The notes under the pieces: model-generated
Told to the model about the DNA's origin: nothing
Databases searched by the model: none
What the model saw: only the letters and a program-made list of their open reading frames with translations
Shown here: positions 26,406-42,947 of the stretch, in pieces
Layout: every line of letters starts with the position of its first letter
Numbering within the stretch: position 1 is the first letter of the stretch
Translations under genes and position numbers: made by a program
From: Candidatus Leptovillus affinis
Lineage (GTDB): Bacteria > Chloroflexota > Anaerolineae > Promineifilales > Promineifilaceae
DNA: 64,000 nucleotides
Assembly: GCA_016705235.1 (NCBI GenBank)
Contig: JADIYP010000005.1
Span: 190,067-254,066, forward strand
Reading direction: 5' to 3'

Positions 26406-26993
26406 TCAAAGCACATCGTTACAAAAGCGGTGAAACTCGCAATCCACGCAGCGAGCGGGTGTGTCGGGCGGGGCGGGTAGCTGCTGCGCCTGGGCGATGG
26501 CGGCCATTTGTGTCAACGCTTTGTCTAGTTGGCGCTGGAGATGGGCGGTGAACGGAACCGGCACAGCTTCGCGGTTGGGGATGAGGTAGAGGAAGCCGCG
26601 TTGGACGGGTTTGTCGGGGTGGAGTGTTTGCAAGAGACGGCCGTAAGCCAGCACCTGCATCTTAAAATGCGCCCCCACCTTCTTGGAATCCTTGTAATCT
26701 ACGGGGATTCGCTCCGCCTCCGTCTCGATGAGCATATCCAGCACCCCCGACAACTTCAGATCTGCCGACAGCAGCGGCACGTTAAACGAGCGTTCGCCAC
26801 TTGCCAGCCCATAAGTCCGCAACTGCCGCCGCTTCTCCCGCTCCTCCGCCTGGATGTGGGATTGGATGCCCGCCTCCATTTTATAGGTGATGGGGCGCAC
26901 ATCCGGCAGCACTGTCTGGTAATACAAAATGCGCGGGCAGTACACGTATTGCTTCAGGTCAATCACGCGGAAGGTGAAGGGGTCTTGGTCCAT
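26406..26993 (-). CDS. cas4: CRISPR-associated exonuclease Cas4
   Basis: N-terminal Cys (YVYCPRILYY), RecB-type motifs (DML...VDYKDSKK) and a C-terminal Cys cluster CVDCEFHRFC. Confidence 0.9.
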   Translation of the reverse strand: MDQDPFTFRVIDLKQYVYCPRILYYQTVLPDVRPITYKMEAGIQSHIQAEEREKRRQLRTYGLASGERSFNVPLLSADLKLSGVLDMLIETEAERIPVDYKDSKKVGAHFKMQVLAYGRLLQTLHPDKPVQRGFLYLIPNREAVPVPFTAHLQRQLDKALTQMAAIAQAQQLPAPPDTPARCVDCEFHRFCNDVL

Positions 26994-27020
26994 AGTTTGG
27001 TAGTCCTGTAGTTTGATGGT

Positions 27021-27126
27021 CTAGCAGTCTGTCGGAGAACCTCTTTTTGTAGCCGGGGTATCCTTACCCCGCCTCTGGAAGACGGTAAGAAACCGCGGCT
27101 ACGGGTACTTTCCGACAAACTGCTAG
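27021..27126 (+). repeat. Foldback (MITE-like) element, copy C (106 bp), inserted between cas2 and cas4
   Basis: Same sequence as 2032..2140 with 3 nt deleted. It is flanked on both sides by GTAGTC-word low-complexity sequence. Confidence 0.85.
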
Positions 27127-27215
27127 TAGTCTTGTAGTCTTGTAGTCGGGTAGTCGAATTGTCTGGTCGTGTGGCAAAAGCTATCCACCTCTTCCTATCA
27201 ACTCCCAACTCCCTA

Positions 27216-27458
27216 CTACCCACTATTCTCCATCCGATTCGCCCAATCCTTGCCGCAAATAGGGATGAGTTGGATGTTGCCTTCCTGCTTGCCCAGCAGG
27301 TCGGTGACTTTGCGGAAGAGTTCTTCCTGATAGTTGCGCGAGATGTCGCCACAAAAGGCGCTGTACTGGATGCGATCCAAACCGTAATCCAGGCAAGCAT
27401 CGGCGATTTTGGCGCGGATACGGTCGTCCACAATGTCGTAGATGAGCAGGCAGCGCAT
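27216..27458 (-). CDS. cas2: CRISPR-associated endoribonuclease Cas2
   Basis: MRCLLIYDIVDDRIRAKIADACLDYGLDRIQYSAFCGDIS... is a classic Cas2 N-terminus. The start is placed at the internal ATG at 27458; the track ORF extends into a repeat hairpin. Confidence 0.85.
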   Translation of the reverse strand: MRCLLIYDIVDDRIRAKIADACLDYGLDRIQYSAFCGDISRNYQEELFRKVTDLLGKQEGNIQLIPICGKDWANRMENSG

Positions 27459-27542
27459 GGGAATTTCGGATTTTTGATTTCGGATTTCGGATGGGGGGAT
27501 ATGCCGAAATCCCAAATCCCAAATCCGAAATCCTGAATCGTT

Positions 27543-28586
27543 TCACCAACTGGCGAGAAAGGGCGTGTAGGCGTCACGCTCGTTGCGGACGTAGGTGGCG
27601 ATGGTGCGGGCCTGCATCTGGATAATTGTGCGCAAGGGATAGCGCTTGTCGGCATATTTTTCCGGCGTTTCGAGCCGCGTCAGGATTTTTTCGGCCAGAA
27701 AGCGGCGAGTTTTCTCGGTGAGAAAGCCCTGTTCGTCCTGCTCGATTTTGACGCCTTTGTTGACCAGTCCCAGCACGGTGCGATCTACGGCCGGAGCGCG
27801 AAACTCCTCGATGAAATCCAGCGCCAGGCTGGGCTTGCCGGGCCGGTCGGTGTGGACGTAGCCGCCGTAGGGGTCCAATCCGGCCAGAACAACAGCGCGT
27901 TCGATCTGGCTGTAGAGGATGCCATAGCCGTAGTTGAGGGCGCTGTTAAAGGGGTCGCGGGCGCCGCGTCCTTCACGGCCGTTCCATTCCCATCCTTCCG
28001 GCAGCAGCAGCTTGATACCCCGCCAATACTTCTGCGCGGCGCGTCCTTCGATGGAGAGCAGCGGGCCGCGCACGTCGTCTATGTGGTAATGCTCGCGGGG
28101 GGCCAGAAAGTCCAGGGCGCAGAGTTCTTCCATGTGGTCGAGGATTTCCCCGGCCAGCCAGTGAAGGTCGCGGTGCAGGTCGGGATCGGTCTCCTTGCGA
28201 TATTTGGCGGCGTATTTGAGCAGGGTGGCCTGGTTCTGGATTTTGCCACCGGCGAAGGCGAGGGCCAGGTGGATGGCGCGCAGGTCGTTGTAGGCCGTTA
28301 GTTGGGCGCGGCGGGTGAGGACGGTGCCGGTGAGACCGGCGCTGTAGAGGCTGGCATAGGGGTTGCCGGTGCCACTGAGGAAGTGGATGGGGATGCCCTG
28401 GTCGGTGCAGGCGCGGATGGCGTCGGCGGAGATGGAGACGCCGTTGTTGGCAATGGTGACGGTTTCGAGGTGGAGCAGAGGGGCCTGGGCCAGGGTTTCT
28501 TTACCCTGGGTGATTTTGAGGCGGCCCTGGTATTTACCGACGTGGCTGCCGAACTGGTCGGCGATGAGGTGTTGGATAATGGGCAT
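27543..28586 (-). CDS. cas1: CRISPR-associated endonuclease Cas1
   Basis: DPFNSALNYGYGILYSQIERAVVLAGLDPYGGYVHTDRPGKPSLALDFIEEFR is the Cas1 catalytic core. Confidence 0.95.
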   Translation of the reverse strand: MPIIQHLIADQFGSHVGKYQGRLKITQGKETLAQAPLLHLETVTIANNGVSISADAIRACTDQGIPIHFLSGTGNPYASLYSAGLTGTVLTRRAQLTAYNDLRAIHLALAFAGGKIQNQATLLKYAAKYRKETDPDLHRDLHWLAGEILDHMEELCALDFLAPREHYHIDDVRGPLLSIEGRAAQKYWRGIKLLLPEGWEWNGREGRGARDPFNSALNYGYGILYSQIERAVVLAGLDPYGGYVHTDRPGKPSLALDFIEEFRAPAVDRTVLGLVNKGVKIEQDEQGFLTEKTRRFLAEKILTRLETPEKYADKRYPLRTIIQMQARTIATYVRNERDAYTPFLASW

Positions 28587-28677: not shown

Positions 28678-28989
<312 letters not shown>

Positions 28990-28997
28990 TGGTGAAC

Positions 28998-29300
28998 ATG
29001 AACGTGCAAACGATACAAATCTCACCCCACGCTCGTCTACGGATGGCACAACGGAATGTGTCGGACGCCCAGATTTTGTTTATACTTACACATGGTCACG
29101 CGGTACACTGTGCCGGAGCCATTCTCGTCACCTTACGTCAAAAAGACATTCCTAAATCAGAGCGGGCAAAGGATACTTTTGCCCGTTTAGAAGGGGTAAC
29201 GGTTGTGATGAATCGATCAGCGCCAGTTGTGCAAACGGTATGGCGGAATCGCCGTCATGGGCTGCGCCACATTCGCCAGAAACCCCGTTATTCCTGTTAA
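28998..29300 (+). CDS. DUF4258-like protein (putative toxin)
   Basis: ISPHARLRMAQRNVSDAQILFILTHG resembles the DUF4258 H-x-x-x-R-M-x-x-R-x-I motif. The ATG at 28998 overlaps the upstream gene end. Confidence 0.5.
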   Translation: MNVQTIQISPHARLRMAQRNVSDAQILFILTHGHAVHCAGAILVTLRQKDIPKSERAKDTFARLEGVTVVMNRSAPVVQTVWRNRRHGLRHIRQKPRYSC

Positions 29301-29404: not shown

Positions 29405-29638
29405 ATGAGTAAAGGTTTAGCCAGAGCCGAACGATTGCGCCAATTAGAGAAGAAGTATTTGTATGGTGCGTTCAACGACGAAGAAATGGCAGCGGCGATG
29501 GGCGTCGAAAGCCGAATTACCATCTACAAAGACCGTCAGTTGTTGCTGAAGAACGGTGTGCCTTTTGTGGAGACAGAACGAGGCCGCTGGAAGATTGATC
29601 GCCAAAAATACGTCTCGGAACTGCGGGTGAATGCATGA
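29405..29638 (+). CDS. HTH N-terminal fragment of a WYL-type regulator (split or frameshifted)
   Basis: EEMAAAMGVESRITIYKDRQLLLKNGVPF is HTH-like. The ORF ends at 29638 and overlaps the WYL ORF by 8 nt in another frame. Confidence 0.55.
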   Translation: MSKGLARAERLRQLEKKYLYGAFNDEEMAAAMGVESRITIYKDRQLLLKNGVPFVETERGRWKIDRQKYVSELRVNA

Positions 29639-30428
29639 AGCGGCGATGTTGTATCTGATGGCGCGTAAAGCGGCCCGGCAGACGCATGCACCCAATCCTC
29701 ATCTAGTCAATGTCTTGCGGACAATTGCCTTGAAGTTGCACCAACCCTTGATGGATCGGCTGATTACGGCGACAGATTTTATTCCCCAGGCAGAGGGGGC
29801 ATTGGAAGAAACGGCCGTTCTGGAAAAAATCGTCACCTGTTGGGTAGAGCAGCGCAAAGTCAGCATTCGTTACCGGGGGCTACAGTCGCAAAAGTCAACG
29901 GTTCACCTGGTCAGCCCTTATTTGCTGGAACCGTCGTTGTGGGGCGAAGGGATTTACCTGGTGGGCTATAGTGAAAAGCTGAACCGGATTGTGCCTTTCA
30001 AGTTAAATCGTATCGAAAAAGCGGCCGACACCACACAACCCATCATTGCATCGGACTCATTCAACGAACAGGAGTTTGTGCGCAACGTGTGGAGCATTTG
30101 GGATGGCGACGGAGAGTTGGTGACGGTGAAGCTGCGATTTCGGGGGGAAACGGCCGTGCGTCGGGTGCTAGAGAGTGTGTGGCATCCGAACCAGGCGGAA
30201 CCGGAGCGGCTGCCGAACGGGGATTTGATCTGGTCTACGCAGGTGGCGGAGTGGCGGGAGATGCTGCCGTGGATATGCGGGTGGGGGGCGGATTGCGAGG
30301 TGTTGGAACCGGTGACTTTGCGTGAAACGCTCATGGGGGAGGCAAAGGCTATGGCTGAACAATACGGCTGGTTTGTCAACAAGCAAGCCAATTCATCCAT
30401 AAGCGCGGCGTCTGATTTTTTTGGATGA
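29631..30428 (+). CDS. WYL-domain protein (C-terminal part of a CRISPR-associated HTH-WYL regulator)
   Basis: VSIRYRGLQSQKSTVHLVSPYLLEPSLWGEGIYLVGYSEKLNRIVPFKLNRIEKA is a WYL domain. It is followed by a WCX-like C-terminal region. Confidence 0.75.
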   Translation: MHEAAMLYLMARKAARQTHAPNPHLVNVLRTIALKLHQPLMDRLITATDFIPQAEGALEETAVLEKIVTCWVEQRKVSIRYRGLQSQKSTVHLVSPYLLEPSLWGEGIYLVGYSEKLNRIVPFKLNRIEKAADTTQPIIASDSFNEQEFVRNVWSIWDGDGELVTVKLRFRGETAVRRVLESVWHPNQAEPERLPNGDLIWSTQVAEWREMLPWICGWGADCEVLEPVTLRETLMGEAKAMAEQYGWFVNKQANSSISAASDFFG

Positions 30429-30434
30429 TGGCGA

Positions 30435-30794
30435 TCATTTTGCCGATTTCACGCGAATTTTGCGATCTGTGACCACGACAAGACAACCAGACCACTGCGC
30501 TACCGCTTCGCTGGTGAAGATCACTTCAACTTTCTGGATCAACTGTCGGCGAGTGGGGTTGTTGAGACGGAGCAACAAAACACCATGATGTGTACCGGGC
30601 TTGAAGTGCTGAACATTCGAGAAATCAAGGTCTTGGGTGATCAAAAAGCGATTCTCTGCTTGAGCCGCCTGCCAAACCTGATCATCATCCGCCCCGTCAA
30701 GATTTTCTTCCGGGACCGTTTCGGCATCATGCCCAAGCTGGCGCAGCATAACCGCCAATTCAACCGGCAGATTTTCATCCAGCTTGATCTGCAT
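30435..30794 (-). CDS. DUF5615 / Mut7-C-like PIN-fold putative toxin
   Basis: MQIKLDENLPVELAVMLRQLGHDAETV...DDDQVWQAAQAENRFLITQDLDF. Confidence 0.7.
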   Translation of the reverse strand: MQIKLDENLPVELAVMLRQLGHDAETVPEENLDGADDDQVWQAAQAENRFLITQDLDFSNVQHFKPGTHHGVLLLRLNNPTRRQLIQKVEVIFTSEAVAQWSGCLVVVTDRKIRVKSAK

Positions 30795-30796: not shown

Positions 30797-31030
30797 TTAT
30801 ACCGCCAGAACCATCGCTGGTATATCTTCGGCCGCAGAGTCAGCCGCAAAGGCAATCAAGGCCCAGATCGCTTCTTCAGTCAGTGTGGGAAAGCTGTGCA
30901 GAATGTCTTCCACACGGTCGCCTTCGGCCAGACTGCCTAAGATGGTGCGGATGGGGATACGGGTGCCTTTGACAACGGCCGTTCCGCCACAGATTTTAGG
31001 GTCGCGCACAATATAGTTTGTATAGTCCAT
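30797..31030 (-). CDS. DUF433 putative antitoxin
   Basis: IVRDPKICGGTAVVKGTRIPIRTILGSLAEGDRVEDILHSFPTLTEEAIWALIAFA. It lies 2 nt upstream of the DUF5615 gene. Confidence 0.75.
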   Translation of the reverse strand: MDYTNYIVRDPKICGGTAVVKGTRIPIRTILGSLAEGDRVEDILHSFPTLTEEAIWALIAFAADSAAEDIPAMVLAV

Positions 31031-31066: not shown

Positions 31067-33544
31067 ATGTCAAAACCGTATGTCTATCAACAGCAAGTTC
31101 AAGAAGCTCTGTTGCAAGGTCAAAATATCATCCTGCAAGCACCCACCGGGGCCGGCAAAACCCGCGCCGCGCTAACCCCATTTCTGGATACATTTTGGGA
31201 TGCGTCAGCCAGTGTCTTTCCTAAAAAGTGCGTTTACATTGTGCCCATGCGTGTCCTGGCAAATCAATTCACCGAAGAGGTACGCAAAAAAGCAGCGCGA
31301 TACGAACGTATCTATAAACGCCAACTTAACGTGGGACGACAAACTGGCGAATATAGGGAAGACCCCGAATTTCGCGCCGCCATTACCTTTGCCACCATTG
31401 ATCAGGTGTTGAGCAGTTGGCTGATGCACCCGTACAGCCTGTCGGCGCGGAAGGGAAACCTGAATACTGGCGCGTTTGTCGGTAGTTACCTAATTTTTGA
31501 TGAGTTCCACCTTTTCGATCCCGATTCTATGCTGCCAACAACGCTACATATGCTGAAAACCCTAAAAGGCGTAAGCCCTTTTGTGTTGATGACGGCGACC
31601 TTTTCTCAGGAAATGTTGCAAGAACTGGCGCAGGAATTGGGGGCAACGGCCGTTCTCCTTTCGCCCGACGATCTACAAAAGATCCCTTCGCAGCACAAAA
31701 CGCGCACCTTCCATACGGTAGACCGGCCTTTGGTAGGTGACGATGACGTATTCATTGACCAGATTGTGGCTGCGCACCTGGCACAAGAATCAGATGACCA
31801 GCGGTCTCTGGTGGTGTGTAACCAGGTAGAACGAGCGCAACGTGTGTATCAGGCATTGACGCGACATCCTGACCTGACCGATGTTACCGTGCGCCTGCTG
31901 CACAGCCGCTTTTTGCGTGCAGACCGGCAAAAGATTGAGGCAGAAATCCGGCGCGAGTTCAATAAAGAGCGGGCACAGCATACGCAGCGCAGCATGATTT
32001 TGGTAGGTACACAGGTAGTGGAAGTAGGATTGGATATGAGCAGCCGCGCTTTACATACGGAACTGGCTCCGGCAGCGGCCGTTTTGCAGCGGGCGGGGCG
32101 ATGTGCGCGGTATGAAGGGGAAGAAGGCCATGTGTATGTCTACCGCCTAGAACCGGAAAGTTATGCGCCGTACCACAACCGTTATGCCGCTGAACAATGC
32201 GACCTGACCTGGGAATGGCTGCAAACCCATCAAGACCACCACCTTTCTTTCCAGGATGAACAAGCCCTCATCAACCATGCCCACACGCCATCAGACCGTA
32301 ATATCCTCAAAGGACTAAAAGCAGGTGAACTGGACCATGAACGTGAAATCTACGTAATCTGGCGCGGTGATGGCAATCGTGGCGAGGCGCAAAAGCTGAT
32401 ACGCAACATTCAGGCAGTGTCCATTGTTGTTCACCCTGAACCAGACAAACTGGTTTCTGCGCCTTTCAAAGTTGAGAGCTTCTCCCTTTTTCCCGGCACG
32501 TTACATGGCAAATTCAAGGAGTGGCAAAAACACAATAATGCTACCGATGAATTTTTCGATGAAGGCCATTTAGAATGGTTGATCCGAAGGCTTGAGGAGC
32601 TGCCGGACAGTGAAGAAGACGCGCAAGGAAATCAGGTGGTGCGTTATGGTTTCAAAGATGTAACATCGTCGGCTGCTTTGCATGGGCCGCTGTTTGCTGT
32701 TAATCCAGCGTTGGTCGGTTATACGCCGGAGATGGGATTAACTTTATATCCGGGAGCGCCGTATACATGTTCAACGCCAGAGCAAGACAAAGGCGCAGCA
32801 GCGCAAAGTCCGGCACATAGTTCCAGGTTAGAAAGCTACTGTCGGCATATCGAACTGGTACATGAAGCCTTTCGGGATGATTTTTTACGGCCGTTAGCCC
32901 AAAGCGCCGTTCGCCTGGAAAAGGCATTTAGCTGGTCGCCAGGCATTATCGCCGAAACAGCCCATCTGGTTATTTGCCTGCATGACGTGGGCAAACTCAA
33001 CAACCAGTGGCAGCAGTGGGTGCGGAACTGGCAAAAACAAACGGGGCAGGTATATGAAAAAGATGGCGTTTACGCCCATTGGGACGGAGATGGTTCGGAA
33101 ACCCACCGGACGCTGGAACGAAAGCTAAAAAGGCAGCGCCCCCACCACGCGATTGAAGGGGCCATCGCCAGTATTCCTTTGCTGGAGGCTGTTATTCCCG
33201 AAAGCTGCGAACCACTTCTTCGAGCGGCGTTCACGGCCGTTGCCCGCCATCATACCACCTTTGCCAGCGAGGCAAGCAATTATCGCTTGATCCCTACGTA
33301 TCGGGCAGAGATAGACAAGACGCTGCAATTGCCACAAGTGCCGGTTACTTTATTCACAAAATGCCAGGGCGTGCCAATTGAAGATCGCATTGAGGCGAAT
33401 TTGCCTTTACAAAGAGAATTACAGGAGAACTATTTTATTCGTGAGACGAATCAGGAAGATATGTGCAGCTATATGCTTTTGGTGCGGGCTTTGCGTCTGG
33501 CCGACCAAAAAGGGACGGAACGCGGTTCACGGGACGCGAGTTAA
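31067..33544 (+). CDS. cas3: Cas3 helicase with a C-terminal HD nuclease domain
   Basis: Motif I ILQAPTGAGKTRAAL and motif II LIFDEFHLFD, with helicase C motifs. The HD-type residues lie only near the C-terminus (LVICLHDVGKLNNQW, ...RHHTTF). Confidence 0.85.
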   Translation: MSKPYVYQQQVQEALLQGQNIILQAPTGAGKTRAALTPFLDTFWDASASVFPKKCVYIVPMRVLANQFTEEVRKKAARYERIYKRQLNVGRQTGEYREDPEFRAAITFATIDQVLSSWLMHPYSLSARKGNLNTGAFVGSYLIFDEFHLFDPDSMLPTTLHMLKTLKGVSPFVLMTATFSQEMLQELAQELGATAVLLSPDDLQKIPSQHKTRTFHTVDRPLVGDDDVFIDQIVAAHLAQESDDQRSLVVCNQVERAQRVYQALTRHPDLTDVTVRLLHSRFLRADRQKIEAEIRREFNKERAQHTQRSMILVGTQVVEVGLDMSSRALHTELAPAAAVLQRAGRCARYEGEEGHVYVYRLEPESYAPYHNRYAAEQCDLTWEWLQTHQDHHLSFQDEQALINHAHTPSDRNILKGLKAGELDHEREIYVIWRGDGNRGEAQKLIRNIQAVSIVVHPEPDKLVSAPFKVESFSLFPGTLHGKFKEWQKHNNATDEFFDEGHLEWLIRRLEELPDSEEDAQGNQVVRYGFKDVTSSAALHGPLFAVNPALVGYTPEMGLTLYPGAPYTCSTPEQDKGAAAQSPAHSSRLESYCRHIELVHEAFRDDFLRPLAQSAVRLEKAFSWSPGIIAETAHLVICLHDVGKLNNQWQQWVRNWQKQTGQVYEKDGVYAHWDGDGSETHRTLERKLKRQRPHHAIEGAIASIPLLEAVIPESCEPLLRAAFTAVARHHTTFASEASNYRLIPTYRAEIDKTLQLPQVPVTLFTKCQGVPIEDRIEANLPLQRELQENYFIRETNQEDMCSYMLLVRALRLADQKGTERGSRDAS

Positions 33545-33931
33545 GCCAGCCATTTGCTCAATATGATGATCGAAAGAGAAAACGGCCGTTACCCCCATTT
33601 GCTGCGCCAGCGCCAACAAAGAGCAATCGGGGTAGCTCCAATCCTTATCGGCGTAACGGCTAAAAAGCGACCAGATGACTTGACGCATGTCATCGGTCAA
33701 AGGAACAAGCTGAAATTGGGCGCTTGCCTGAATGCTTTCACCCAATTGAATCGCTTGCCTGCTGCCCAAACGCGCCTTAATCAGCGTCATAGTTTCGGCA
33801 AAGATGAATTCTGGGATGAAGAAAACAGCCTCTCTGTTAGCCAGGGCAAACTGTTTGGCGACCGGATGAAACCTATCTTTGGCGTTCAACAGCGCCAGAA
33901 ACGCGCCAGAATCAATAATGAATTGGGGCAT
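33527..33931 (-). CDS. vapC: PIN-domain toxin VapC
   Basis: MPQFIIDSGAFLALLNAKDRFH...FSFDHHIEQM is PIN-type. It overlaps the cas3 3' end by 18 nt on the opposite strand. Confidence 0.8.
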   Translation of the reverse strand: MPQFIIDSGAFLALLNAKDRFHPVAKQFALANREAVFFIPEFIFAETMTLIKARLGSRQAIQLGESIQASAQFQLVPLTDDMRQVIWSLFSRYADKDWSYPDCSLLALAQQMGVTAVFSFDHHIEQMAGLTRVP

Positions 33932-33933: not shown

Positions 33934-34260
33934 TTATGACGACTTGTTGTTGATCCGCACGGCCTGCCCGTCACTACCCCGACGATACCTTTGGGGCGCA
34001 ATTTCCCAGGCGTGCAACTCCTGCGCTTCCGCGCTCATCATGTCCGCCAACAAATATAAATCTGGGTCCTGGCTGACAGGAATGCCATCAATCAACGGTT
34101 TTTCGCTGCTGAATGCACCAATGAGATCAAAAACGGGATCGGTTATCTCTACCTCACTGCGCTCAATGTGCAGCCGAACCCGCGTCCGGTTGGGCAGTTT
34201 AAGCGGGGTTAACGGCCGTAATACCCCATTTTCATATACGGCCGTAATTATTTCGCTCAT
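33934..34260 (-). CDS. Antitoxin (AF2212/DUF104-like N-terminus) paired with VapC
   Basis: MSEIITAVYENGVLRPLTPLKLPNRTRVRLHIE. It lies 2 nt upstream of vapC. I prefer the ATG at 34260 to the one at 34284. Confidence 0.7.
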   Translation of the reverse strand: MSEIITAVYENGVLRPLTPLKLPNRTRVRLHIERSEVEITDPVFDLIGAFSSEKPLIDGIPVSQDPDLYLLADMMSAEAQELHAWEIAPQRYRRGSDGQAVRINNKSS

Positions 34261-34711: not shown

Positions 34712-36530
34712 CAACCATTTTATCATAGACAAAATCACGGGTACGTTCGCAGATGATTTGCTCGCTGCCGGTTTCATGGCTGTGTTAGATAACCTGTATC
34801 GTCGGCAGGTCGGCATAGCCAATATGACACAAGTGGATTGTGGTCATTATTATCAGATAATGGCCGATGCGCCGTTAGACTTGGAAAAGGTGCAGCGCGA
34901 GGCTGAATTTTTTATCGGCGCAAGATTCCTGCGTACCGAGGGCAATAAAGACAAATTGCCAACCGGCTTACCCGAAGCATACTTTGTGGATTACAAAGAA
35001 AAACGGGATGAGCGCAACGCTTTTTTCGATGCCCTGAACACTTTAGAAAAAACGGTGAGTAAGGCGTATTGGCGCGGCGACGAAGAGGTGCTGGCTTATT
35101 TGCCCACACCCCCTGATCGCCACTACGACATTTACCGGATGATGAACAGCCCAACAACGCTCATTGGCTACACGCGGCTGGTGAATCAGTGGGTGCAGGT
35201 GGGGGAAAGCGGCCGTACCGGTGACGTGTGTTACCTGTTGTGCCAGATGTTCAGCAGCGATGCAGACGGCCGTTATCAGCCCAACGATGTGGCAGCGGCC
35301 GTCGCCGCCTGGAAAGACATTGCCAAAACCGAGCAATGGCCGCTAAATGACACAATCACAACCGCCAGCCAGGTTCTCAATCCGGCGCAAGGCAAAGGCG
35401 TCAACCGTCCTAAGCCGGATGGGGTATCTCCCACAAATCTATCTGGCTTTTGGTTGTTAGAGTGGCTTAAACTGGTCGGCTTTTACCAGATCGGGTTAAC
35501 GGCCGTGCTGCGCGACAGTAGCGACCGCAAAACCTATGTCCCCGCCGCCGGACGCATGACCATCCGCACCCGCGAGCAGATCGACATCCGCTTTCGTAAC
35601 CTTACCCGCGCCAACGAAAGCGCCACCCGCGCCGACATCCTCACCGTGCTGCAATACCTTAGAGCATTCATCCGCGTTACCAGGGAAGCCCAAGAGCAGC
35701 CCGACATGCCCCAACTGCGCTTTAGCCGCCACCGTTCGGTCCGCCCCGCCGACTTCATTCATGGCTTCCACGTCGCCTTTTATAAGAATTTGGGTAACGC
35801 GGCGGCCGTCATGAACATGGCCTTTCTTAATTTGCCCGGTTGGGTACAAATCCATAATGCGGACGAAGCCCAACAATTTCTGGACATTTTGGACGAACAC
35901 GCCGGCATCGTCCGGCAGTTTGCCGAAAACAAAGGCGACGAACTTGATCTCCTCGGCCAATACCGTGACTTCGTTGTCGCCGACAATCTGGACCCATTTT
36001 TTGAATTCAATACTGCCTACAGCAGTTGGCTAATCAGCGCCGGGGAGAAGCCAGGCTTCCCACCGCGTAAATTTTCCACCCACAATTTAAGGAGGTTACT
36101 TGTGAGCGTACAACATGATTTAAGTGACATTGTAGAATCGCCCGGTTTCATTAATATTGCTCGCGCTATTCGTGAAAGCACAGTTCGGGCACAGTACCGT
36201 AAGAACCAAAAGAATGATAAACGGTACACCGTTCGCTACGGTTTGGGGCGTGATTTGGTGCGCAAAGCGTATCACCGCGAAGAATTTGTCGCCGCTCTTA
36301 GCGAATTCTTGCTGACTTATAACGCTGAAAATGCTCAGGTTTTAGAGCGTTATCCAAAAGACAAATACCCCCAATATAAATATCGGTGGGATGTTCAGAC
36401 GGGCGACATTAAAGATATTTTGTCTCTAATAGACAAGTATTCCAATCCCCCCGATCTTATCGCCAAACTACTGGTGGCTTATGGGTATGCAAGTGATTAT
36501 CAAGCCAAAAGCGAGGAGGAAGCCGAATGA
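34704..36530 (+). CDS. Cas8-like large Cascade subunit (positional call; possibly Cmx8/DevT/Cst1-like)
   Basis: About 608 aa, the first gene of the effector operon, immediately before the cas7 and cas5 genes. GGAGG lies 6 nt before the ATG at 34704. I can name no diagnostic motif. Confidence 0.55.
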   Translation: MSNNHFIIDKITGTFADDLLAAGFMAVLDNLYRRQVGIANMTQVDCGHYYQIMADAPLDLEKVQREAEFFIGARFLRTEGNKDKLPTGLPEAYFVDYKEKRDERNAFFDALNTLEKTVSKAYWRGDEEVLAYLPTPPDRHYDIYRMMNSPTTLIGYTRLVNQWVQVGESGRTGDVCYLLCQMFSSDADGRYQPNDVAAAVAAWKDIAKTEQWPLNDTITTASQVLNPAQGKGVNRPKPDGVSPTNLSGFWLLEWLKLVGFYQIGLTAVLRDSSDRKTYVPAAGRMTIRTREQIDIRFRNLTRANESATRADILTVLQYLRAFIRVTREAQEQPDMPQLRFSRHRSVRPADFIHGFHVAFYKNLGNAAAVMNMAFLNLPGWVQIHNADEAQQFLDILDEHAGIVRQFAENKGDELDLLGQYRDFVVADNLDPFFEFNTAYSSWLISAGEKPGFPPRKFSTHNLRRLLVSVQHDLSDIVESPGFINIARAIRESTVRAQYRKNQKNDKRYTVRYGLGRDLVRKAYHREEFVAALSEFLLTYNAENAQVLERYPKDKYPQYKYRWDVQTGDIKDILSLIDKYSNPPDLIAKLLVAYGYASDYQAKSEEEAE

Positions 36531-36739
36531 AACGCACGGCCGTTTCCTCCAGCAATCTCGCTTCAGTTGGTTACGATCCCGCCAGCCAATCTCTGGAAAT
36601 CGAGTTTACAACGGGTCGGGTTTATGAATACTTTGATGTTCCCCAACAAACCTATGACAAGTTGATGGCGGCTGAGTCACACGGCCGTTACTTCAATGCC
36701 TATATTCGTGACAATTACCATTACACAAGAATTCGATAA
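36527..36739 (+). CDS. KTSC-domain protein embedded in the Cascade operon
   Basis: SSNLASVGYDPASQSLEIEFTTGRVYEYFDVPQQTYDKLMAAESHGRYFNAYIRDNYHYTRI matches the KTSC (lysyl-tRNA synthetase C-terminal-like) domain pattern. Its start overlaps the cas8 stop (ATGA). Confidence 0.75.
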   Translation: MKRTAVSSSNLASVGYDPASQSLEIEFTTGRVYEYFDVPQQTYDKLMAAESHGRYFNAYIRDNYHYTRIR

Positions 36740-36751: not shown

Positions 36752-37729
36752 GTGTCCATTTATTCCATTTCCCTCTCTGCCCAACTCACCCTGGATATGC
36801 ACAGCCTCAACAACGAAGGCGGCGAAGGCAACCAGATTCAAACCCGCATGGTCAACATCGTGGATGGCAACGGCCGTTTGCAAAACGTCAATGCCATCTC
36901 CGGCGACATGATTAAGCACATCCTGGCCGAGCATCTGCACCGCATTGCTACCGCCAACGGCCTGCCCCTATGCGCCGGTTGTAAAACCTTTAATGCCAAC
37001 CGCATCAGCGCCGATGAAAGCTACATGGCCGCCATCGCCAACATGAACGACGCCGACTCGTTAACATTGATGCTGGAAACATGCGCTATGGATGATATGC
37101 TGGGCAACCTGATCACGGCCGGTTCCAAATCTTTGCCGCGCAAATCGGTGGTTGAGTTTGGATGGGTGGTCGGTTTGCCCGAACTGACCCGTTCCGATAG
37201 CTATTTTCACGTCAAGTATTCCAACGAACGGGGAAAAGCTGAACGAGATGCCCAAAAAGGCGAAGAATCACGCGGGGCAAATTTGGGGCAAGCCATCTTC
37301 CATCGGCCGGCCAACAGCGGCGTGTACGCCCTGGTTGCTACCATCGAAGCGGCGCGTATTGGCTTCAACGACATTACGCAGAAATATGTGTTAGATGAAG
37401 CCCAACGACAGGCGCGATTGAAAGCCTTGCTCGAAGCCCTTCTCTACACCCTCATGGAACCGGCCGGAGCCATGCGCGGCACTCAAGCCCCCCACATCGT
37501 AGACGTGGCCGGGGTGATCACCGTCAGCCAAAACGTCATTCCCGCGCCCACCCTCAGCCCGCTCAAAGGAGGGTACGATCAGGAATTAACCGACCTGTGC
37601 GCGACGCTGAACAGCATTCGGCCCAACGCTCTGGCAGCCCACTCCTTCAGTTCAATGAACGGCTACGCCCAAACCGTGCGCGACCTCATCCAAAGTGCCA
37701 CGCCGTACACGTTGCAATATGCAGGTTGA
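36752..37729 (+). CDS. cas7: Cas7 backbone subunit, DevR/Cst2/Csa2 type
   Basis: SISLSAQLTLDMHSLNNEGGEGNQIQTRMVNIVDGNGRLQNVNAISGDMIKHILAEHL is the DevR-family signature. A GTG start follows AAGGAG. Confidence 0.85.
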   Translation: MSIYSISLSAQLTLDMHSLNNEGGEGNQIQTRMVNIVDGNGRLQNVNAISGDMIKHILAEHLHRIATANGLPLCAGCKTFNANRISADESYMAAIANMNDADSLTLMLETCAMDDMLGNLITAGSKSLPRKSVVEFGWVVGLPELTRSDSYFHVKYSNERGKAERDAQKGEESRGANLGQAIFHRPANSGVYALVATIEAARIGFNDITQKYVLDEAQRQARLKALLEALLYTLMEPAGAMRGTQAPHIVDVAGVITVSQNVIPAPTLSPLKGGYDQELTDLCATLNSIRPNALAAHSFSSMNGYAQTVRDLIQSATPYTLQYAG

Positions 37730-37794: not shown

Positions 37795-38484
37795 ATGATA
37801 TGGATACAAGCAATTTACCAGCCGACCACCCTGTTTAGCTTACGGCCGTCCTGGACAACCTCATCCGGGGGTAAAAGTCTGCTGCTGCCGTCGCCTTACG
37901 CGCTGAAAACGGCCGTTCTCGACGCCGCCATTCGCACCAGTGGTTTGGGGCAAGCCGAGCAAGCCTGGCCCTGGATACGCGACATGGGCATCGGCGTGCA
38001 ACTACCGCCACAAATCGTCGTCACCAACCTGTTCGCCAAAATTCTGCGCCTGCGCCGCAATCCGGCTACACCCGGTTCTGCTGATGTTGGCCCTTTCCAG
38101 AAAACCATCGCCTATCGCGAATATGTCTACCATCCACAACCGATCACCCTGGCTTTTGCTGTCCCCGATGGTCAGGCGGCGCAGCTTGGCGATTGGCTGG
38201 CGCAAATTAGCTATCTGGGCAAGCGCGGCGGCTTTGTGCAACTGTTGGCCCCTCCTATACCCCTGGCCGATAGCGCTGGCTTTGTGTTATTGACAGCCGA
38301 CGTTACCAGCTTCCCCCTCAATGGCCTGGTACAACAGCTAGACGATTGTGATCCGAAGATGAAATTTGTGGAGGCGAACATTTACGACAGCAAAAAGCCA
38401 AAGCGGGTGGTGCGGCATGTGGTCTTACCCTACCGGCTGGCAAAATCCAGCCGCGCCTATTCCCTCTACCAACACACCGGCTAA
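37795..38484 (+). CDS. cas5: Cas5-like Cascade subunit
   Basis: 229 aa, directly after cas7. The N-terminus FSLRPSWTTSSGGKSLLLPSPYALKTAVLDAAIR fits the Cas5 RAMP N-terminal pattern. The call is mainly positional. Confidence 0.55.
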   Translation: MIWIQAIYQPTTLFSLRPSWTTSSGGKSLLLPSPYALKTAVLDAAIRTSGLGQAEQAWPWIRDMGIGVQLPPQIVVTNLFAKILRLRRNPATPGSADVGPFQKTIAYREYVYHPQPITLAFAVPDGQAAQLGDWLAQISYLGKRGGFVQLLAPPIPLADSAGFVLLTADVTSFPLNGLVQQLDDCDPKMKFVEANIYDSKKPKRVVRHVVLPYRLAKSSRAYSLYQHTG

Positions 38485-38544
38485 ACAAAACGGCCGTTGG
38501 TTGCCCTCACCAACGGCCGTTACCATACAACCTGCCAATGAAAA

Positions 38545-38847
38545 CTAAACCGTCTCATGCACAAGCACATCCCGCTCAATTTGCGCGCCCACCTCATCTT
38601 GCGCCACGTCCAGATCGTAGTCAAGTTGCAGGCCAAGCCAGAATTGCGCCGATGTGCCAAAAAATCGCGCTAAACGCAAAGCCGTATCGGCCGTAATCCG
38701 TCGCCGACCATGAATGATCTCATTAATCCGTCGCGTCGGCACACGCATCGCCAGAGCGAGTTTGTTCTGGCTAATATCCATTGGCAGCAAAAATTCTTCC
38801 AACAAGACTTCACCCGGATGTAATGGAGGTATTTTATTATTCGCCAT
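38545..38847 (-). CDS. higA: HigA antitoxin (XRE-family HTH)
   Basis: HPGEVLLEEFLLPMDISQNKLALAMRVPTRRINEIIHGRRRITADTALRLARFFGTSAQFWLGLQLDYDL. Confidence 0.85.
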   Translation of the reverse strand: MANNKIPPLHPGEVLLEEFLLPMDISQNKLALAMRVPTRRINEIIHGRRRITADTALRLARFFGTSAQFWLGLQLDYDLDVAQDEVGAQIERDVLVHETV

Positions 38848-38956: not shown

Positions 38957-39238
38957 TTAATGATAATCAACAATTTCTACAGCATGGGCATCACCATCGC
39001 GCCATTCAAAACAGATTCGCCATTGTTGATTGACCCGAATGCTATATTGGCCCGCTCGATCACCATGCAATTGCTCCAATCGGTTACTCGGCGGTATGCG
39101 CAAATCGTCCAAAGAGACCGCCCGATTGAGCATACGAAGTTTCCGAAATGCGCGTTGTTGAATATCTTGAGGCAGCTTACGAGAAAATTCTCGATGAAAA
39201 ATCCTTTCTGCTTCCCGATCCCGAAAGTTGCGAATCAT
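38957..39238 (-). CDS. higB: HigB toxin (RelE/ParE superfamily, plasmid maintenance killer type)
   Basis: MIRNFRDREAERIF...LDDLRIPPSNRLEQLHGDRAGQYSIRVNQQWRICFEWRDGDAHAVEIVDYH. Confidence 0.85.
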   Translation of the reverse strand: MIRNFRDREAERIFHREFSRKLPQDIQQRAFRKLRMLNRAVSLDDLRIPPSNRLEQLHGDRAGQYSIRVNQQWRICFEWRDGDAHAVEIVDYH

Positions 39239-39330
39239 GATTGTACCTCATTCACCCAATTGTATAACCTTGCGCGTTAAACGCAAAGTGTTATATTAGG
39301 GACGAGATTATTTCCAGCAAATCAACCAAC

Positions 39331-40359
39331 ATGACCAACCTACAACTCACCCACCTTCGCTTCGACTGCACCGCCACCACACCCATCAAAATGGGCAGCC
39401 ATTACGCCGGTAACAACCTGCGCAACGCCCTCGCCAACGTCATGCGCCGCGCCACCTGCCCCGAATACCGCACCAATCGCCCGCCCGAACCCGCCCACGC
39501 AGCCACCTGCCCCGCCTGCTGGCTGCTCTCGGCCAACCTCGACCCTGGCACCGTCATCCGCGCCTACGCCGTCGCGCCACCCCTCCCGCCCCGCAGCTAC
39601 CTCCAAGCCGGTGAGCGCTTCAGCTTCGCCCTCACCCTCTTCGGCGACGGCTTCCACTACCTGCCCTACGTCGTCCTGGCCGCCAACGAGGCCGGACAAA
39701 GCGAAGGCATTGGCCCAGGCCGGCGCGAAGGGCTGGGCCGATTTGCCGTGGACAGGATAACGGCCGTAGACCCCCTGCGCGGCGACATGCAATCTTGCCT
39801 GGCCCCCGGCGACGCCTTCGTGACTGTACCCAATCTGTTTGTAGACGAAACGGCCGTGCGCCACATCAGCCAGATGCACCACCAAGCCCTCAACGGCCGT
39901 CATCTCACCCTTCACTTCCTCACCCCCACGCGGCTGGAAGAGAAAGGGCAGCTCTACAAACTGCCTGATTTCTCCGTCCTCTTCCGGCGCTTGCTCTACC
40001 GCATAGACGAATTGGGCCGCCAGTTTGCCGGGCAAGAGCGGCGCGATCCAGCCGAGGTGGCCCATCTTCACGCCCTGGCCGACAGCGTGCGCCTGGTAGA
40101 TGCGCAAACCGACTGGCAAGAAATGTGGGTCTACTCCGGGCGCAAGGGCGAGAAAACGCCCTTGAGCGGCTTTACCGGCACGGCCGTCTACCGCAGCGAC
40201 GATTGGACCGAGCTGCTGCCCTGGCTGGTATGGGGTCAGGCGACCCACGTCGGAAAATCAGTTGTCAAGGGCAACGGCGTCTACGAATTAGGGGGTGGAA
40301 ACTGGCCTCCCTACTGGGATTGGCTGCGCGCCGACCACCTGTGGGAAGCTGCGACCTGA
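39331..40359 (+). CDS. cas6: Cas6-like crRNA endoribonuclease (large, MYXAN/Cmx6-like)
   Basis: It lies immediately upstream of the array leader. The C-terminal glycine-rich loop HVGKSVVKGNGVY fits the Cas6 G-h-G-x5-G-h-G pattern. It has a Cys-rich insert, CPEY...CPACW. Confidence 0.6.
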   Translation: MTNLQLTHLRFDCTATTPIKMGSHYAGNNLRNALANVMRRATCPEYRTNRPPEPAHAATCPACWLLSANLDPGTVIRAYAVAPPLPPRSYLQAGERFSFALTLFGDGFHYLPYVVLAANEAGQSEGIGPGRREGLGRFAVDRITAVDPLRGDMQSCLAPGDAFVTVPNLFVDETAVRHISQMHHQALNGRHLTLHFLTPTRLEEKGQLYKLPDFSVLFRRLLYRIDELGRQFAGQERRDPAEVAHLHALADSVRLVDAQTDWQEMWVYSGRKGEKTPLSGFTGTAVYRSDDWTELLPWLVWGQATHVGKSVVKGNGVYELGGGNWPPYWDWLRADHLWEAAT

Positions 40360-40531
40360 CCGTCGCAAATCCCCCCTGTTTTGGCGCAAAAACCGATTTG
40401 CGAAAAACGCTCGTTAACAACCACATATTCGGCGAAATTAAGATAAAATAGACCTGCTATAATGGCCTGTAACGGTTAAAACGGCCGTTACAGGCCAAAT
40501 ATGAACCATTAACAATAAAAAACGCGGGCGG
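40360..40531 (+). promoter_or_regulatory. CRISPR leader
   Basis: A 172-nt AT-rich segment between cas6 and the first repeat. TATAAT lies at 40458..40463, followed by the 12-bp inverted repeat GGCCTGTAACGG / CCGTTACAGGCC. Confidence 0.55.
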
Positions 40532-42947
40532 GTCGCCCCACCAGAGAATCGCCAGAGATTACTGAAACACTCGGCCCCAGAGATGCCAGAGATGCACGGT
40601 CGCCCCACCAGAGAATCGCCAGAGATTACTGAAACACTTCTGCCCGGCAGCCATTGCCATGTGCTGTAGCGGACGGTCGCCCCACCAGAGAATCGCCAGA
40701 GATTACTGAAACACAACATGAGGCTTACGGCCGTCAGCTTTCGCTGACATTGGTCGCCCCACCAGAGAATCGCCAGAGATTACTGAAACGCCGTCCGGGT
40801 GGCCCCCCAGAGAATCGCCAGAGATTACTGGAATTGCGGACTCCTGTGAGTTCCCTGCGGTCGCCCCACCAGAGAATCGCCAGAGATTACTGAAACATCT
40901 CCCCAGACGCTCGAATAGTTTCCCTGACCAGGGTCGCCCCACCAGAGAATCGCCAGAGATTACTGAAAACCCCGGGGGGTGAGCGGGGGGAGGGCGCGGG
41001 GGGTCGCCCCACCAGAGAATCGCCAGAGATTACTGAAACACGCGAATCGGCGACCAGCCGCCGACCATCGGGTCGCCCCACCAGAGAATCGCCAGAGATT
41101 ACTCACACGCGCGGGGCGAGGGTCGCCCCACCAGAGAATCGCCAGAGATTACTGAAACTACTTTGGTTTTTCTTCTTGCTTTGGTTGCAGGTCGCCCCAC
41201 CAGAGAATCGCCAGAGATTACTGAAGGGGACCAGAGAATCGCCAGAGATTACTGAAACTGGTGGGTGATGATTGTTGTGTTCATCTCCATGGGCTGGTCG
41301 CCCCACCAGAGAATCGCCAGAGATTACTGAAACACCTGGCAGCCATCGCTTATCGTGTCTGGTTTGGGTCGCCCCACCAGAGAATCGCCAGAGATTACTG
41401 AAACAGACAAAACCCAGGGCCTGTCGCCCCACCAGAGAATGCCAGAGATACGAAAACAAGGTCGCCGCCCCACCAGAGAATCGCCAGAGATTACTGAAAC
41501 ACCGCCTGGCAGCCATCGTGCGCGGCGGGTCGCCCCACCAGAGAATCGCCAGAGATTACTGAAACGACGTCATACGCTGGAACGACAAAGGCAAATTGTA
41601 GGTCGCCCCACCAGAGAATCGCCAGAGATTACTGAAACAGTGTAGTCTAGTGTCGGCCAGCTTTTGCGCGTCGGTCGCCCCACCAGAGAATCGCCAGAGA
41701 TTACTGAAAACGGATTGCAGCATGCGGCACGCACCGTTCCCGCTGGGTCGCCCCACCAGAGAATCGCCAGAGATTACTGAAACGCTGACCACGCACTTTG
41801 CGCCGATATCGTCGAGGTCGCCCCACCAGAGAATCGCCAGAGATTACTGAAACGCCGGCGGGGTGGGTTGGCTGGGCTGCGCTTAGAAGGTCGCCCCACC
41901 AGAGAATCGCCAGAGATTACTGAAACTGGAGCTTAATTTTATATCGGCCGGCCAGCCGTTGGGTCGCCCCACCAGAGAATCGCCAGAGATTACTGAAACT
42001 CTGGAGGTCGCCTCCCGGCCACAGAGCAAAGGAGGAGGTCGCCCCACCAGAGAATCGCCAGAGATTACTGAAACACAATAAGAGGGGCGACTGGCAATTT
42101 TACGTGCCGCGTCGCCCCACCAGAGAATCGCCAGAGATTACTGAAACCGACTTTGACGGCATCCATTTTGACGGCTCGCCAAGGTCGCCCCACCAGAGAA
42201 TCGCCAGAGATTACTGAAACGTAACCGAAGCCATAGAAACCAACACACCCAGAAGTCGCCCCACCAGAGAATCGCCAGAGATTACTGAAACAGATAACGT
42301 CAGGCATGTGGCAGGCCGGGCACCAGGTCGCCCCACCAGAGAATCGCCAGAGATTACTGAAACAGAATCATAGCGCCGCAGCCGCCCAGCAGCATGGCCG
42401 TCGCCCCACCAGAGAATCGCCAGAGATTACTGAAACATTTGGTCTTAATCGTTTTGGCGAACTGGCCAAAGTCGCCCCACCAGAGAATCGCCAGAGATTA
42501 CTGAAACACCAGTGGCAAGGGTACGATCTTTGGCTGGTCGATACGTCGCCCCACCAGAGAATCGCCAGAGATTACTGAAACGGCACGCCCGGCCCCATTG
42601 GTGGAGCTGGTAGCACAGTCGCCCCACCAGAGAATCGCCAGAGATTACTGAAACACGAAAATCTACTGCTCTAAATCGTGCCGAGTTGCTATAGTCGCCC
42701 CACCAGAGAATCGCCAGAGATTACTGAAACATGTGTGGCTTAAATACAGCCTAGGGTCTGTCCATTGTCGCCCCACCAGAGAATCGCCAGAGATTACTGA
42801 AACGTTACACTCCCCATCGCCCACCATCGTTAACGAAAGTCGCCCCACCAGAGAATCGCCAGAGATTACTGAAACCGCAGCTTGCAACCGACCTTGACGA
42901 ACTGGCAACAGTCGCCCCACCAGAGAATCGCCAGAGATTACAGTGTT
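40532..42947 (+). CRISPR. CRISPR array with about 36 repeat units of 37 nt (GTCGCCCCACCAGAGAATCGCCAGAGATTACTGAAAC); spacers mostly 32-40 nt
   Basis: I delimited every unit by hand. 27 units are canonical and about 9 are variant, partial or degenerate. Most variants fall between 40801 and 41500; the terminal unit at 42911 has a degenerate 3' end. Orientation is inferred from the 3' ...GAAAC and from the leader position. All track ORFs within 40438..43124 are artefacts. Confidence 0.95.

Follow-up and report, generated by a model that had tools for sequence, protein, structure and literature searches.

What kind of system is a CRISPR-Cas locus whose genes point to several type I subtypes at once, and how are the toxin-antitoxin (TA) genes lying between its cas genes related to it? 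These questions are raised by positions 26,406 to 42,947 of a 64,000-nt stretch of contig JADIYP010000005.1 of Candidatus Leptovillus affinis (Chloroflexota), the whole stretch being referred to below as the window. An initial annotation described the locus as an unclassified or mosaic type I variant, with an operon repeatedly invaded or guarded by addiction modules. The analysis reported here indicates that the region probably holds a type I CRISPR-Cas locus with all its parts, belonging to a little-known variant that is widespread in Chloroflexota, with lineage-specific cargo and with putative control elements derived from its own repeats. Copies of the CRISPR repeat beside one TA pair and inside another suggest that these pairs are wired to the Cas machinery.

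Open reading frame (ORF) listing and profile searches reproduced the gene layout first described for the locus (Table 1). The adaptation genes lie on the minus strand in the order cas1-cas2-cas4, with a miniature inverted-repeat transposable element (MITE) between cas2 and cas4, and the effector genes lie on the plus strand as cas3, a cas8-like gene, a KTSC gene, cas7, cas5 and cas6, followed by the array. Relatives were sought with the large subunit, encoded by the cas8-like gene, in one genome per GTDB species, and 299 species genomes were found to encode this protein family. The loci of 80 of these relatives, designated L001 and so on, were compared by tblastn with the proteins of the window. 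Nearly all of them belong to Chloroflexota (Anaerolineae, Ardenticatenales, Caldilineales and Thermoflexus), and the carriers include Caldilinea aerophila and Thermoflexus hugenholtzii. These 80 loci show one gene order, WYL-cas3-cas8-cas7-cas5-cas6-cas1-cas2-cas4, with all genes on the same strand, while in the closest clade of the window the adaptation genes are inverted and placed upstream, accompanied by HTH_11 and DUF4258 genes. Judged by this synteny, the locus is an old and coherent variant rather than a patchwork of recent origin, because the gene set and its order are shared by about 300 species genomes in a single phylum. The term "mosaic" therefore does not apply, and a recent combination of an I-B effector with an I-G Cas3 is rejected on the phylum-wide synteny of the whole gene set.

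The term "unclassified" is more apt, since curated libraries do not type the locus and the subtype labels of its proteins disagree, Cas3 pointing to I-G, the large subunit, Cas5 and Cas7 to I-A, and Cas1 and Cas2 to I-B. Subtype definitions were taken from general knowledge and from PMC3150331 and PMC9638904. The features of type I are present, namely Cas3 with an HD domain, Cas5, Cas7, a large subunit and an adjoining CRISPR array of about 35 repeats. Cas3 is a single ORF of 825 amino acids, with helicase motifs at residues 3-400 and the HD domain (PF18019) at residues 615-738, and Cas3 matches span about equal length in the 80 related loci. For the helicase half the top-scoring NCBIfam model is that of I-G Cas3, with 225 bits against a cut-off of 400 and coverage of residues 3-401 only, while the PADLOC models Cas3g, Cas3a and Cas3b score 214, 195 and 194 bits. 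The nearest solved helicase by sequence is Cas3' of the Pyrococcus furiosus I-A system.

Cas7 matches the generic DevR model (TIGR01875) with 101 bits against a cut-off of 67. Its best subtype-specific model is I-A Csa2 (TIGR02583), with 114 bits against a cut-off of 212.6, and the nearest solved structures by sequence are I-A Cas7 proteins of the P. furiosus I-A complex. The large subunit matches a single profile, PADLOC Cas8a (I-A), with 172 bits over residues 223-603; there was no match in NCBIfam or Pfam, and a profile search of PDB sequences found no Cas8. Its AlphaFold2 model has a mean predicted local distance difference test score of 91, and in the PDB this model had significant Foldseek matches only to I-B Cas8b (E = 5e-5) and, of similar quality, to I-A Cas8a (target TM-score 0.55, E = 8.5e-5). 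A Chloroflexi metagenome-assembled genome encodes a "hypothetical protein" with 100% identity to the large subunit, and every named member of the family is called hypothetical. Cas5 gave no match in NCBIfam, Pfam and PDB sequence searches, and Cas6 and the HD half of Cas3 had no relevant match in PDB sequence searches.

Two more specific assignments had been put forward. The DevR-type Cas7 was taken to indicate subtype I-B (MYXAN/TNEAP-like), a reading rejected on the model scores and the C-terminal HD domain: the I-B Cas7 model (TIGR02585), whose cut-off is 72.75, gives 17 bits, and Cas1, although labelled with Cas2 as Cas1b and Cas2b (I-B) by PADLOC, scores 104 bits with cas1_MYXAN (cut-off 358) and 93 bits with cas1_HMARI (cut-off 304). 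The HD domain at the C-terminus of Cas3, regarded as the hallmark of I-G (formerly I-U), is indeed located there, and it is shared with I-G together with the best NCBIfam model for the helicase half, but the other features of I-G are missing. No match to Csx17 (Cas8g) was found among the proteins of the locus, HigBA separates cas5 from cas6, which are distinct genes and form no Csb2 fusion, and cas4 and cas1 are likewise separate, the model of the I-G Cas4-Cas1 fusion (NF049935), with its cut-off of 560, giving 79 and 171 bits. The gene order of I-A systems is cas3' (helicase) followed by cas3'' (HD). The fused Cas3 has the same order, so its C-terminal HD domain need not come from I-G.

The locus thus fails the defining features of I-A (split Cas3, Csa5), of I-B (N-terminal HD, Cas7b) and of I-G (Csx17, Csb2, Cas4-Cas1). 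On the basis of profiles, fold and synteny, the description that suits it best is that of a bacterial I-A-like variant in which Cas3 is a helicase-HD fusion. Its links with the archaeal I-A systems (P. furiosus, Sulfolobales) are a Cas7 that appears to be of the Csa2/DevR type, a large subunit and Cas5 recognised only by I-A-labelled profiles, and the nearest solved Cas7 and Cas3 helicase; a CC-containing motif next to the mini-array targets described below resembles the CCN motif of I-A. It differs from them in its bacterial host, in having Cas3 as one protein, in that no Csa5/Cas11 gene was found, in the single operon led by a WYL regulator in most relatives of this variant, and in a Csa2 score below the NCBIfam subtype cut-off.

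As first described, three minus-strand TA pairs lie within this locus. All of them are recognised by domains scoring above the Pfam cut-offs, PF18480 with PF04255 in DUF433/DUF5615, PIN with AF2212-like in VapBC, and PF05015 with HTH_3 in HigBA, and on these domains they are predicted type II TA pairs. Ten small ORFs from the remaining 47 kb of the window matched nothing in Pfam, so the three pairs are concentrated in this 16.5-kb locus. Here DUF433/DUF5615 occupies the WYL-cas3 junction, VapBC the cas3-cas8 junction and HigBA the cas5-cas6 junction. Each pair diverges from the next cas transcription unit, the starts of DUF433 and cas3 being 36 nt apart.

The content and placement of TA genes differ among relatives, which bears out the view that the operon was repeatedly invaded by TA modules. 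DUF433/DUF5615 was found in none of the 80 related loci, where the WYL-cas3 distance is about 14 nt, and L003 and L005 have no TA genes at these junctions. The closest relative by Cas7 (L002, 90%) carries a VapBC homologue upstream of cas3 and nothing at the cas3-cas8 or cas5-cas6 junctions, while in L010 a VapBC homologue lies between cas5 and cas6. HigBA follows cas5 also in L001 and L009, with protein identities of 82-89%, above those of the neighbouring Cas5 (72-73%). When gaps longer than 250 bp were counted, they were found at cas3-cas8 in 21 of 66 loci, at cas5-cas6 in 14 of 52, at cas6-cas1 in 8 of 36 and at WYL-cas3 in 2 of 54, and never at cas8-cas7 (0/74) or cas7-cas5 (0/64). ORFs in the gaps carry PIN, BrnT, CopG, TumE, MazE and HepT/MNT domains, along with IS200 transposases. 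Of the 13 gap ORFs with TA domains in the related loci, 11 run antisense to the cas genes, and so do all six TA genes of the window.

The initial annotation had named conservation in relatives as a check on random insertion. The TA genes did prove variable, as that view needs, yet they are confined to inter-module junctions and are almost all antisense, and in the window elements derived from the CRISPR repeat adjoin one pair and lie within another. From this comparison of loci, the TA pairs are variable, lineage-specific cargo at permissive inter-module junctions, and their insertion is not random. By the same kind of evidence the MITE and the KTSC gene are further additions to the locus; the latter occurs only in the clade of the window, at the same position between cas8 and cas7 in L005, L006, L009 and L010, and is the sole addition tolerated within the Cascade block. 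TA and insertion sequence elements in and around cas cassettes, with a cargo hotspot from cas3 to the large-subunit gene, have already been published (PMC3973734, PMC9638904, PMC10120712), and TA pairs lie also within the published I-G locus of T. sulfidiphilus (PMC9638904). At the cas6-cas1 junction of L018, L022, L024, L040 and L068 there is a family of plus-strand ORFs of 100-170 amino acids, which probably explains five matches to PF05635 (23S rRNA intervening-sequence protein, a four-helix bundle).

The array contains about 35 copies of a 37-nt repeat. Its part at 41529-42947 is regular, with 20 repeat-spacer units, spacers of 33-39 nt and most repeat copies identical, and the leader-proximal part of about 1 kb (40532-41528) is scrambled, with truncated repeats and spacers of 7-40 nt. 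Near-duplicate spacer fragments with CTGGCAGCCATCG in common were observed in the latter part, and the scrambling is likely due to an assembly that merged heterogeneous strains. The array has its leader towards cas6, while the final repeat at the far end (42911-42947) is degenerate at its 3' end. Arrays of 29 loci have a common 37-nt repeat ending in TACTGAAA(C/G), in which the four bases preceding TAC pair with four bases located 5-7 nt upstream. The stem, perfect in 25 of the 29, is of five types (ACCC/GGGT, ATCC/GGAT, AATC/GATT, ATTC/GAAT and ACTC/GAGT). Such covariation between genomes argues for a real 4-bp hairpin followed by an 8-nt ACTGAAAC handle, which indicates the usual substrate of Cas6. 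Comparison with Rfam matched no family, CRISPR direct-repeat families included.

Two repeat copies, not mentioned in the initial annotation, were found outside the array in the window, both on the strand of the TA genes. At the cas3-cas8 junction, upstream of vapB, an antisense mini-array starts with a copy (34368-34345) identical to the 3' 24 nt of the array repeat (24/24), continues with a spacer of 39 nt and ends with a degenerate copy (34305-34282, 16/24), in which both stem arms are altered yet still paired (ACTC/GAGT). The spacer, beginning with ATTATTGTTTTCATA, matches the sequence CCC followed by ATTATAGTTTTTATA at 34470-34451, with agreement at positions 1-15 except 6 and 12. In type I Cascade complexes, guide positions 6 and 12 do not pair. 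The observed score of this match is 15, the next-best match in the 64-kb window scores 9, and none of 400 shuffled spacers reached the observed score, as was also the case in L048 and L053. The target overlaps the start codon of a small ORF, orf80, at the 5' end of the cas8 operon, and a promoter-like site for orf80-cas8-KTSC-cas7-cas5, identified by consensus match, is located just upstream of it (34411-34439, plus strand).

Seven relatives share the mini-array design, each with its own repeat and spacer sequences. The target consists of CCC followed by ATTCACATTTTAAGTC in L048, with mismatches at positions 6 and 12, and of CCC followed by ACTAATGCCGTCCTACTA in L053, with mismatches at positions 6, 12 and 18. 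Matches weaker than those of the window, L048 and L053 were found in L005 (CCC, 18/24), L008 (CCC, 16/24), L049 (CCC, 19/24), L027 (TCC, 15 of the first 18) and L069 (TCC, seed of 12). In L048, L053, L005, L008 and L049 the small ORF preceding cas8 has the target just upstream. Copies matching the repeat of the same locus are present in the cas3-cas8 gap of L048, L053, L057, L059 and L070, and upstream of cas3 in L027. The hairpin-plus-handle motif was detected in 10 of 38 cas3-cas8 gaps, always antisense, and in none of 60 cas8-cas7 gaps.

With its partial match to a site at its own effector operon, the mini-array looks like a CreR-like autoregulatory guide, a reading strongly supported by the comparative evidence. 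In the proposed mechanism, Cas6 would process the antisense mini-array into a crRNA-like guide, and Cascade loaded with it would bind the partly matching site beside CCC where the orf80-cas8 operon begins; bound there but not cutting, it would then repress the Cascade genes, as CreR guides do. VapBC lies downstream of the mini-array here, and the two may share a transcript. Cas loci with regulatory mini-arrays and with TA cargo have been described before (PMC10120712), the former being reviewed in PMC12737573, and the present case resembles the known CreR elements in being a stand-alone repeat pair in antisense orientation in the gap from cas3 to the large-subunit gene, in its degenerate second repeat copy, in the spacer, which partly matches the large-subunit operon in its promoter region next to a motif like a protospacer-adjacent motif (PAM), and in the adjoining TA and other cargo at a hotspot of gene shuffling. 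It differs in the possible co-transcription of VapBC and in the small ORF regularly found alongside. The survey of Shmakov et al. 2023 reported no mini-arrays in bacterial I-A loci (PMC10120712), so this variant adds a new host system.

The small plus-strand ORF directly before cas8 accompanies the antisense mini-array (for example, 34469-34711 in the window, 4930-5217 in L048 and 9271-9546 in L053) and belongs to two unrelated families without a Pfam match, one comprising the window, L004, L005 and L008, and the other L030, L048, L049, L053, L057, L059, L070 and L077. The small ORF may thus have a role in the regulatory circuit. In a rival reading, the mini-array and the small ORF would form an addiction pair like CreTA and no autoregulator, with Cascade repressing a toxic small gene and loss of Cascade killing the cell. 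The two elements do co-occur in the window, L005, L008, L048, L049, L053, L057, L059 and L070, loci without a cas3-cas8 gap have neither, the target falls at the start of the small ORF in the window, L005, L008, L048, L049 and L053, and the layout parallels that of CreTA between cas genes (PMC10120712). The small ORF, however, abuts or overlaps cas8, so that its repression should also repress the Cascade genes, which amounts to autoregulation; moreover, profile searches revealed no toxin-like domain in the small ORFs. As for orf80, it had no family match in NCBIfam, Pfam or PADLOC and has a single relative, 92% identical, among 5.8 billion proteins, along with a weak homologue in L004, so it is an orphan and a putative coding gene. 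We therefore regard an addiction pair as unlikely and retain the autoregulatory guide as the preferred reading of the mini-array. One close relative is too few for an alignment or a reliable structure with which to evaluate orf80 as Csa5/Cas11.

The second TA pair associated with a repeat is HigBA. Its higB-higA spacer has a length of 109 nt and contains, 53 nt before the start codon of higA, a repeat fragment that differs from the array repeat in one of 24 nt (23/24). The same insert is present in L001, L009 and the metagenomic locus L081, where HigBA also lies beside cas6, and hence in all four cas-linked copies of HigBA; in L009 it has a compensatory stem, ATTC/GAAT instead of AATC/GATT. 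Among 77 other, metagenomic HigBA homologues (60-75% HigB identity), the spacer is only 3-28 nt long in 74, none of which is located beside a cas gene. The short spacers of these ordinary homologues imply that the repeat insert is derived and specific to the CRISPR-linked HigBA lineage. A metagenomic HigBA with no detectable cas neighbours (L104) has a 145-nt spacer with GAGAGTACTTAAC, similar to the 3' part of the L004-type repeat.

Downstream of the handle of the fragment, CTGAAACAC, lies GTGTTTCAG, which is complementary to the handle, and then GCTGAAATG, which holds the start codon of higA and can pair with GTGTTTCAG. Both segments are invariant in the four genomes, and the remaining higB-higA spacer varies. 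Folding of the spacer has a z-score of -3.7 relative to shuffled sequences, and alternative pairings are predicted. The repeat fragment may turn the higBA mRNA into a substrate of Cas6 or Cascade, in which case cleavage by Cas6 or binding of Cascade would control translation of the antitoxin or stability of the message. The supply of antitoxin would then depend on the Cas machinery, and the loss of cas6 or Cascade would free the HigB toxin. It is tentatively proposed that HigBA beside cas6 is a protein-based counterpart of CreTA, its antitoxin needing Cas6 cleavage or Cascade binding and its host being addicted to CRISPR-Cas. The evidence provided by the insert is suggestive, and the addiction mechanism is more speculative than the autoregulation by the mini-array. 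Like CreTA, a Cascade-repressed RNA TA pair, HigBA would combine repeat-derived RNA elements between cas genes with a survival coupling to the Cas effector. Unlike in CreTA, both its toxin and its antitoxin are proteins and belong to a standard type II family, the two genes have a single repeat fragment between them, the search for a promoter target was negative, and the coupling is proposed to act via RNA processing or binding instead of transcriptional repression.

Several observations weigh against these interpretations. Promoters were recognised as consensus matches only and are no more numerous than in shuffled sequence. L057, L059, L070, L023 and L066 have repeat-like copies in the cas3-cas8 gap without a detectable target, and three array spacers had no exact match in IMG/VR. 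The VapBC homologues in L002 and L010 lack an upstream repeat copy, so the mini-array belongs to the cas3-cas8 junction and not to VapBC. The alternative folds of the higB-higA spacer are derived from four close sequences with one covarying pair, and 118 of 500 shuffles did equally well. No DNA target of the HigBA fragment was found, with no seed match longer than 8 nt in the window, L001 and L009 and nothing convincing in the higB/cas6 promoter region, for which reason the fragment was rejected as a transcriptional guide; it is possibly a scar that has persisted, or a guide whose target lies far away. No Csa5 or Cas11 model of NCBIfam, Pfam or PADLOC matched any ORF of the locus. In the model of the large subunit the C-terminal half is long and helical, and it may stand in for Cas11. 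The fold of Cas11 is helical. The KTSC protein is an unlikely small subunit for this reason, and its gene was found in only 5 loci. Finally, the WYL regulator gene is split, as noted in the initial annotation. When its DNA is aligned with that of L003 and L005, a 2-nt deletion is seen near 29636, L003 having one intact ORF of 342 amino acids; together with the scrambled leader-proximal array this could mean that the locus is partly decayed or mis-assembled.

An alternative explanation would be that the TA pairs are selfish or neutral passengers, tolerated where the cas operon stays unbroken, and that the repeat fragments are non-functional scars of array recombination. It is consistent with the different TA content of the closest relatives (none in L003 and L005, VapBC at another junction in L002), with the IS200 transposases and the MITE at the same junctions, with the missing target of the HigBA fragment and with the VapBC homologues devoid of a repeat copy; stand-alone repeats are also known to arise and vanish readily (PMC10120712). 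Scars would not be expected to keep compensatory hairpin changes, which are seen both in the second repeat copy beside vapB and in the HigBA copy of L009, nor to show, in independent genomes, mismatches exactly at positions 6, 12 and 18 beside a CC motif. The insert also persists in the TA spacer of four genomes while the flanking spacer diverges, and the strong antisense bias of the TA cargo is unexpected from neutral insertion. Passengers and scars therefore appear to be an improbable account of the locus, and repeat-derived control is preferred.

That the locus is a decaying remnant which has lost immunity is more doubtful still, since the broken WYL gene, the separation of cas3 from this regulator by a TA insertion, the three antisense insertions into what is a single operon in most relatives, the truncated repeats and spacers in the leader-proximal 1 kb and the three tested spacers without an IMG/VR match stand against nine full-length cas ORFs with family-typical lengths and conserved motifs, 20 regular repeat-spacer units beyond the scrambled part, the same layout in HigBA-bearing relatives, and the fact that a frameshift and scrambling are errors expected from metagenome assembly of a heterogeneous population.

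Table 1. Features of the CRISPR-Cas locus, in positions of the window
Feature	Position	Strand	Profile match or remark
cas4	26406-26993	-	TIGR00372, 101.6 bits (cut-off 65)
MITE-like palindromic element, 110 nt	27021-27130		16-nt terminal inverted repeats; between cas4 and cas2
cas2	27216-27458	-	PF09827, 63.5 bits
Palindrome, 28-nt arms	27463-27539		Arms 89% complementary; between cas1 and cas2
cas1	27543-28586	-	TIGR00287, 243.6 bits; top PADLOC model Cas1b, 300 bits
HTH_11 gene	28681-28989	+	Pfam match; overlaps DUF4258-like gene
DUF4258-like gene	28977-29300	+	Borderline Pfam match, 24.9 bits (cut-off 25)
HTH-WYL-WCX regulator, first piece	29405-29638	+	PF13280 and PF25583 match the regulator
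HTH-WYL-WCX regulator, second piece	29631-30428	+	
DUF5615 gene (predicted PIN-like toxin)	30435-30794	-	PF18480, 92 bits
DUF433 gene (predicted antitoxin)	30797-31030	-	PF04255, 75 bits
cas3, helicase then HD nuclease fused	31067-33544	+	cas3_core, 178 bits
vapC (PIN)	33527-33931	-	Pfam match above cut-off
vapB (AF2212-like)	33934-34260	-	Pfam match above cut-off
Antisense mini-array	34282-34368	-	Two repeat copies and spacer
Predicted mini-array target	34470-34451	-	CCC motif at 34473-34471
orf80	34469-34711	+	Small ORF overlapping cas8 start
cas8, large subunit	34698-36530	+	610 amino acids
KTSC-domain gene	36527-36739	+	PF13619, 95 bits; between cas8 and cas7
cas7 (DevR/Csa2 type)	36752-37729	+	PF01905, 237 bits
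cas5	37795-38484	+	PADLOC Cas5a (I-A) model, 195 bits, full length
GC-rich 13-bp hairpin, terminator-like	38489-38521		Consensus scan; between cas5 and higA ends
higA (predicted antitoxin)	38545-38847	-	HTH_3, 37.7 bits
Conserved segment GCTGAAATG	38853-38845	-	After repeat fragment
Conserved segment GTGTTTCAG	38882-38874	-	After repeat fragment
CRISPR repeat fragment	38923-38900	-	Hairpin and ACTGAAAC handle; inside higB-higA spacer
higB (predicted toxin)	38957-39238	-	PF05015, 76.5 bits
cas6	39331-40359	+	PF10040, 59 bits; PADLOC Cas6 model, 203 bits
AT-rich leader	40360-40531	+	Between cas6 and array
CRISPR array	40532-42947	+	37-nt repeat GTCGCCCCACCAGAGAATCGCCAGAGATTACTGAAAC

Some other features of the region were recorded. 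The MITE named in the initial annotation has a second copy in the window, at 2032-2144 and 25 kb away, which differs only by three inserted or deleted bases; the terminal inverted repeats of both copies are CTAGCAGTCTGTCGGA. The ORF of cas2 extends to 27515, with the Cas2 domain beginning only at residue 20, and the palindrome between cas1 and cas2, which consists of ATTTCGG-like units, is located exactly between the stop codon of cas1 and the likely start of cas2. The DUF4258 pair of the initial annotation proved to consist of the HTH_11 gene and a single DUF4258-like gene, whose score is borderline. The HTH_11 and DUF4258-like genes, kept in L001, L003, L005 and L010, are possibly a fourth TA-like pair. 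The hairpin between the convergent ends of cas5 and higA could act as a bidirectional transcription terminator. Two large LuxR/MalT-like regulator genes are located at 43379-46117 and 48786-51488; with the genes downstream of them they form a diverged tandem duplication of 5.4 kb, with 72-85% DNA identity (43344-43961 versus 48769-49386). A 78-nt unit with the internal palindrome AAACCCTTGGGGTTT is repeated 2.4 times in tandem at 20850-21040, with 97% identity.

Chloroflexota dominate activated sludge and sediments. About 300 species genomes of this phylum carry the variant described here, and its signature large subunit is named "hypothetical protein" by NCBI, which makes it a large blind spot of annotation. 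Pfam and NCBIfam contain no model of this protein or of Cas5, and CRISPR typing in Chloroflexota would benefit from a description of the system and from profiles. The eight genomes with spacer-target pairs of their own, mismatched at every sixth base, constitute a natural test set for autoregulation, and the same pairs give a predicted CC-containing PAM for a system with no known protospacer. Whether TA modules stabilise CRISPR-Cas loci has, to our knowledge, been answered experimentally so far only for the RNA pair CreTA, and the repeat fragment in a protein TA operon beside cas6 makes this question directly testable. If both the addiction through HigBA and the repression by the mini-array are true, this variant would have repeatedly made its own repeats into control elements for its cargo and its cas genes.

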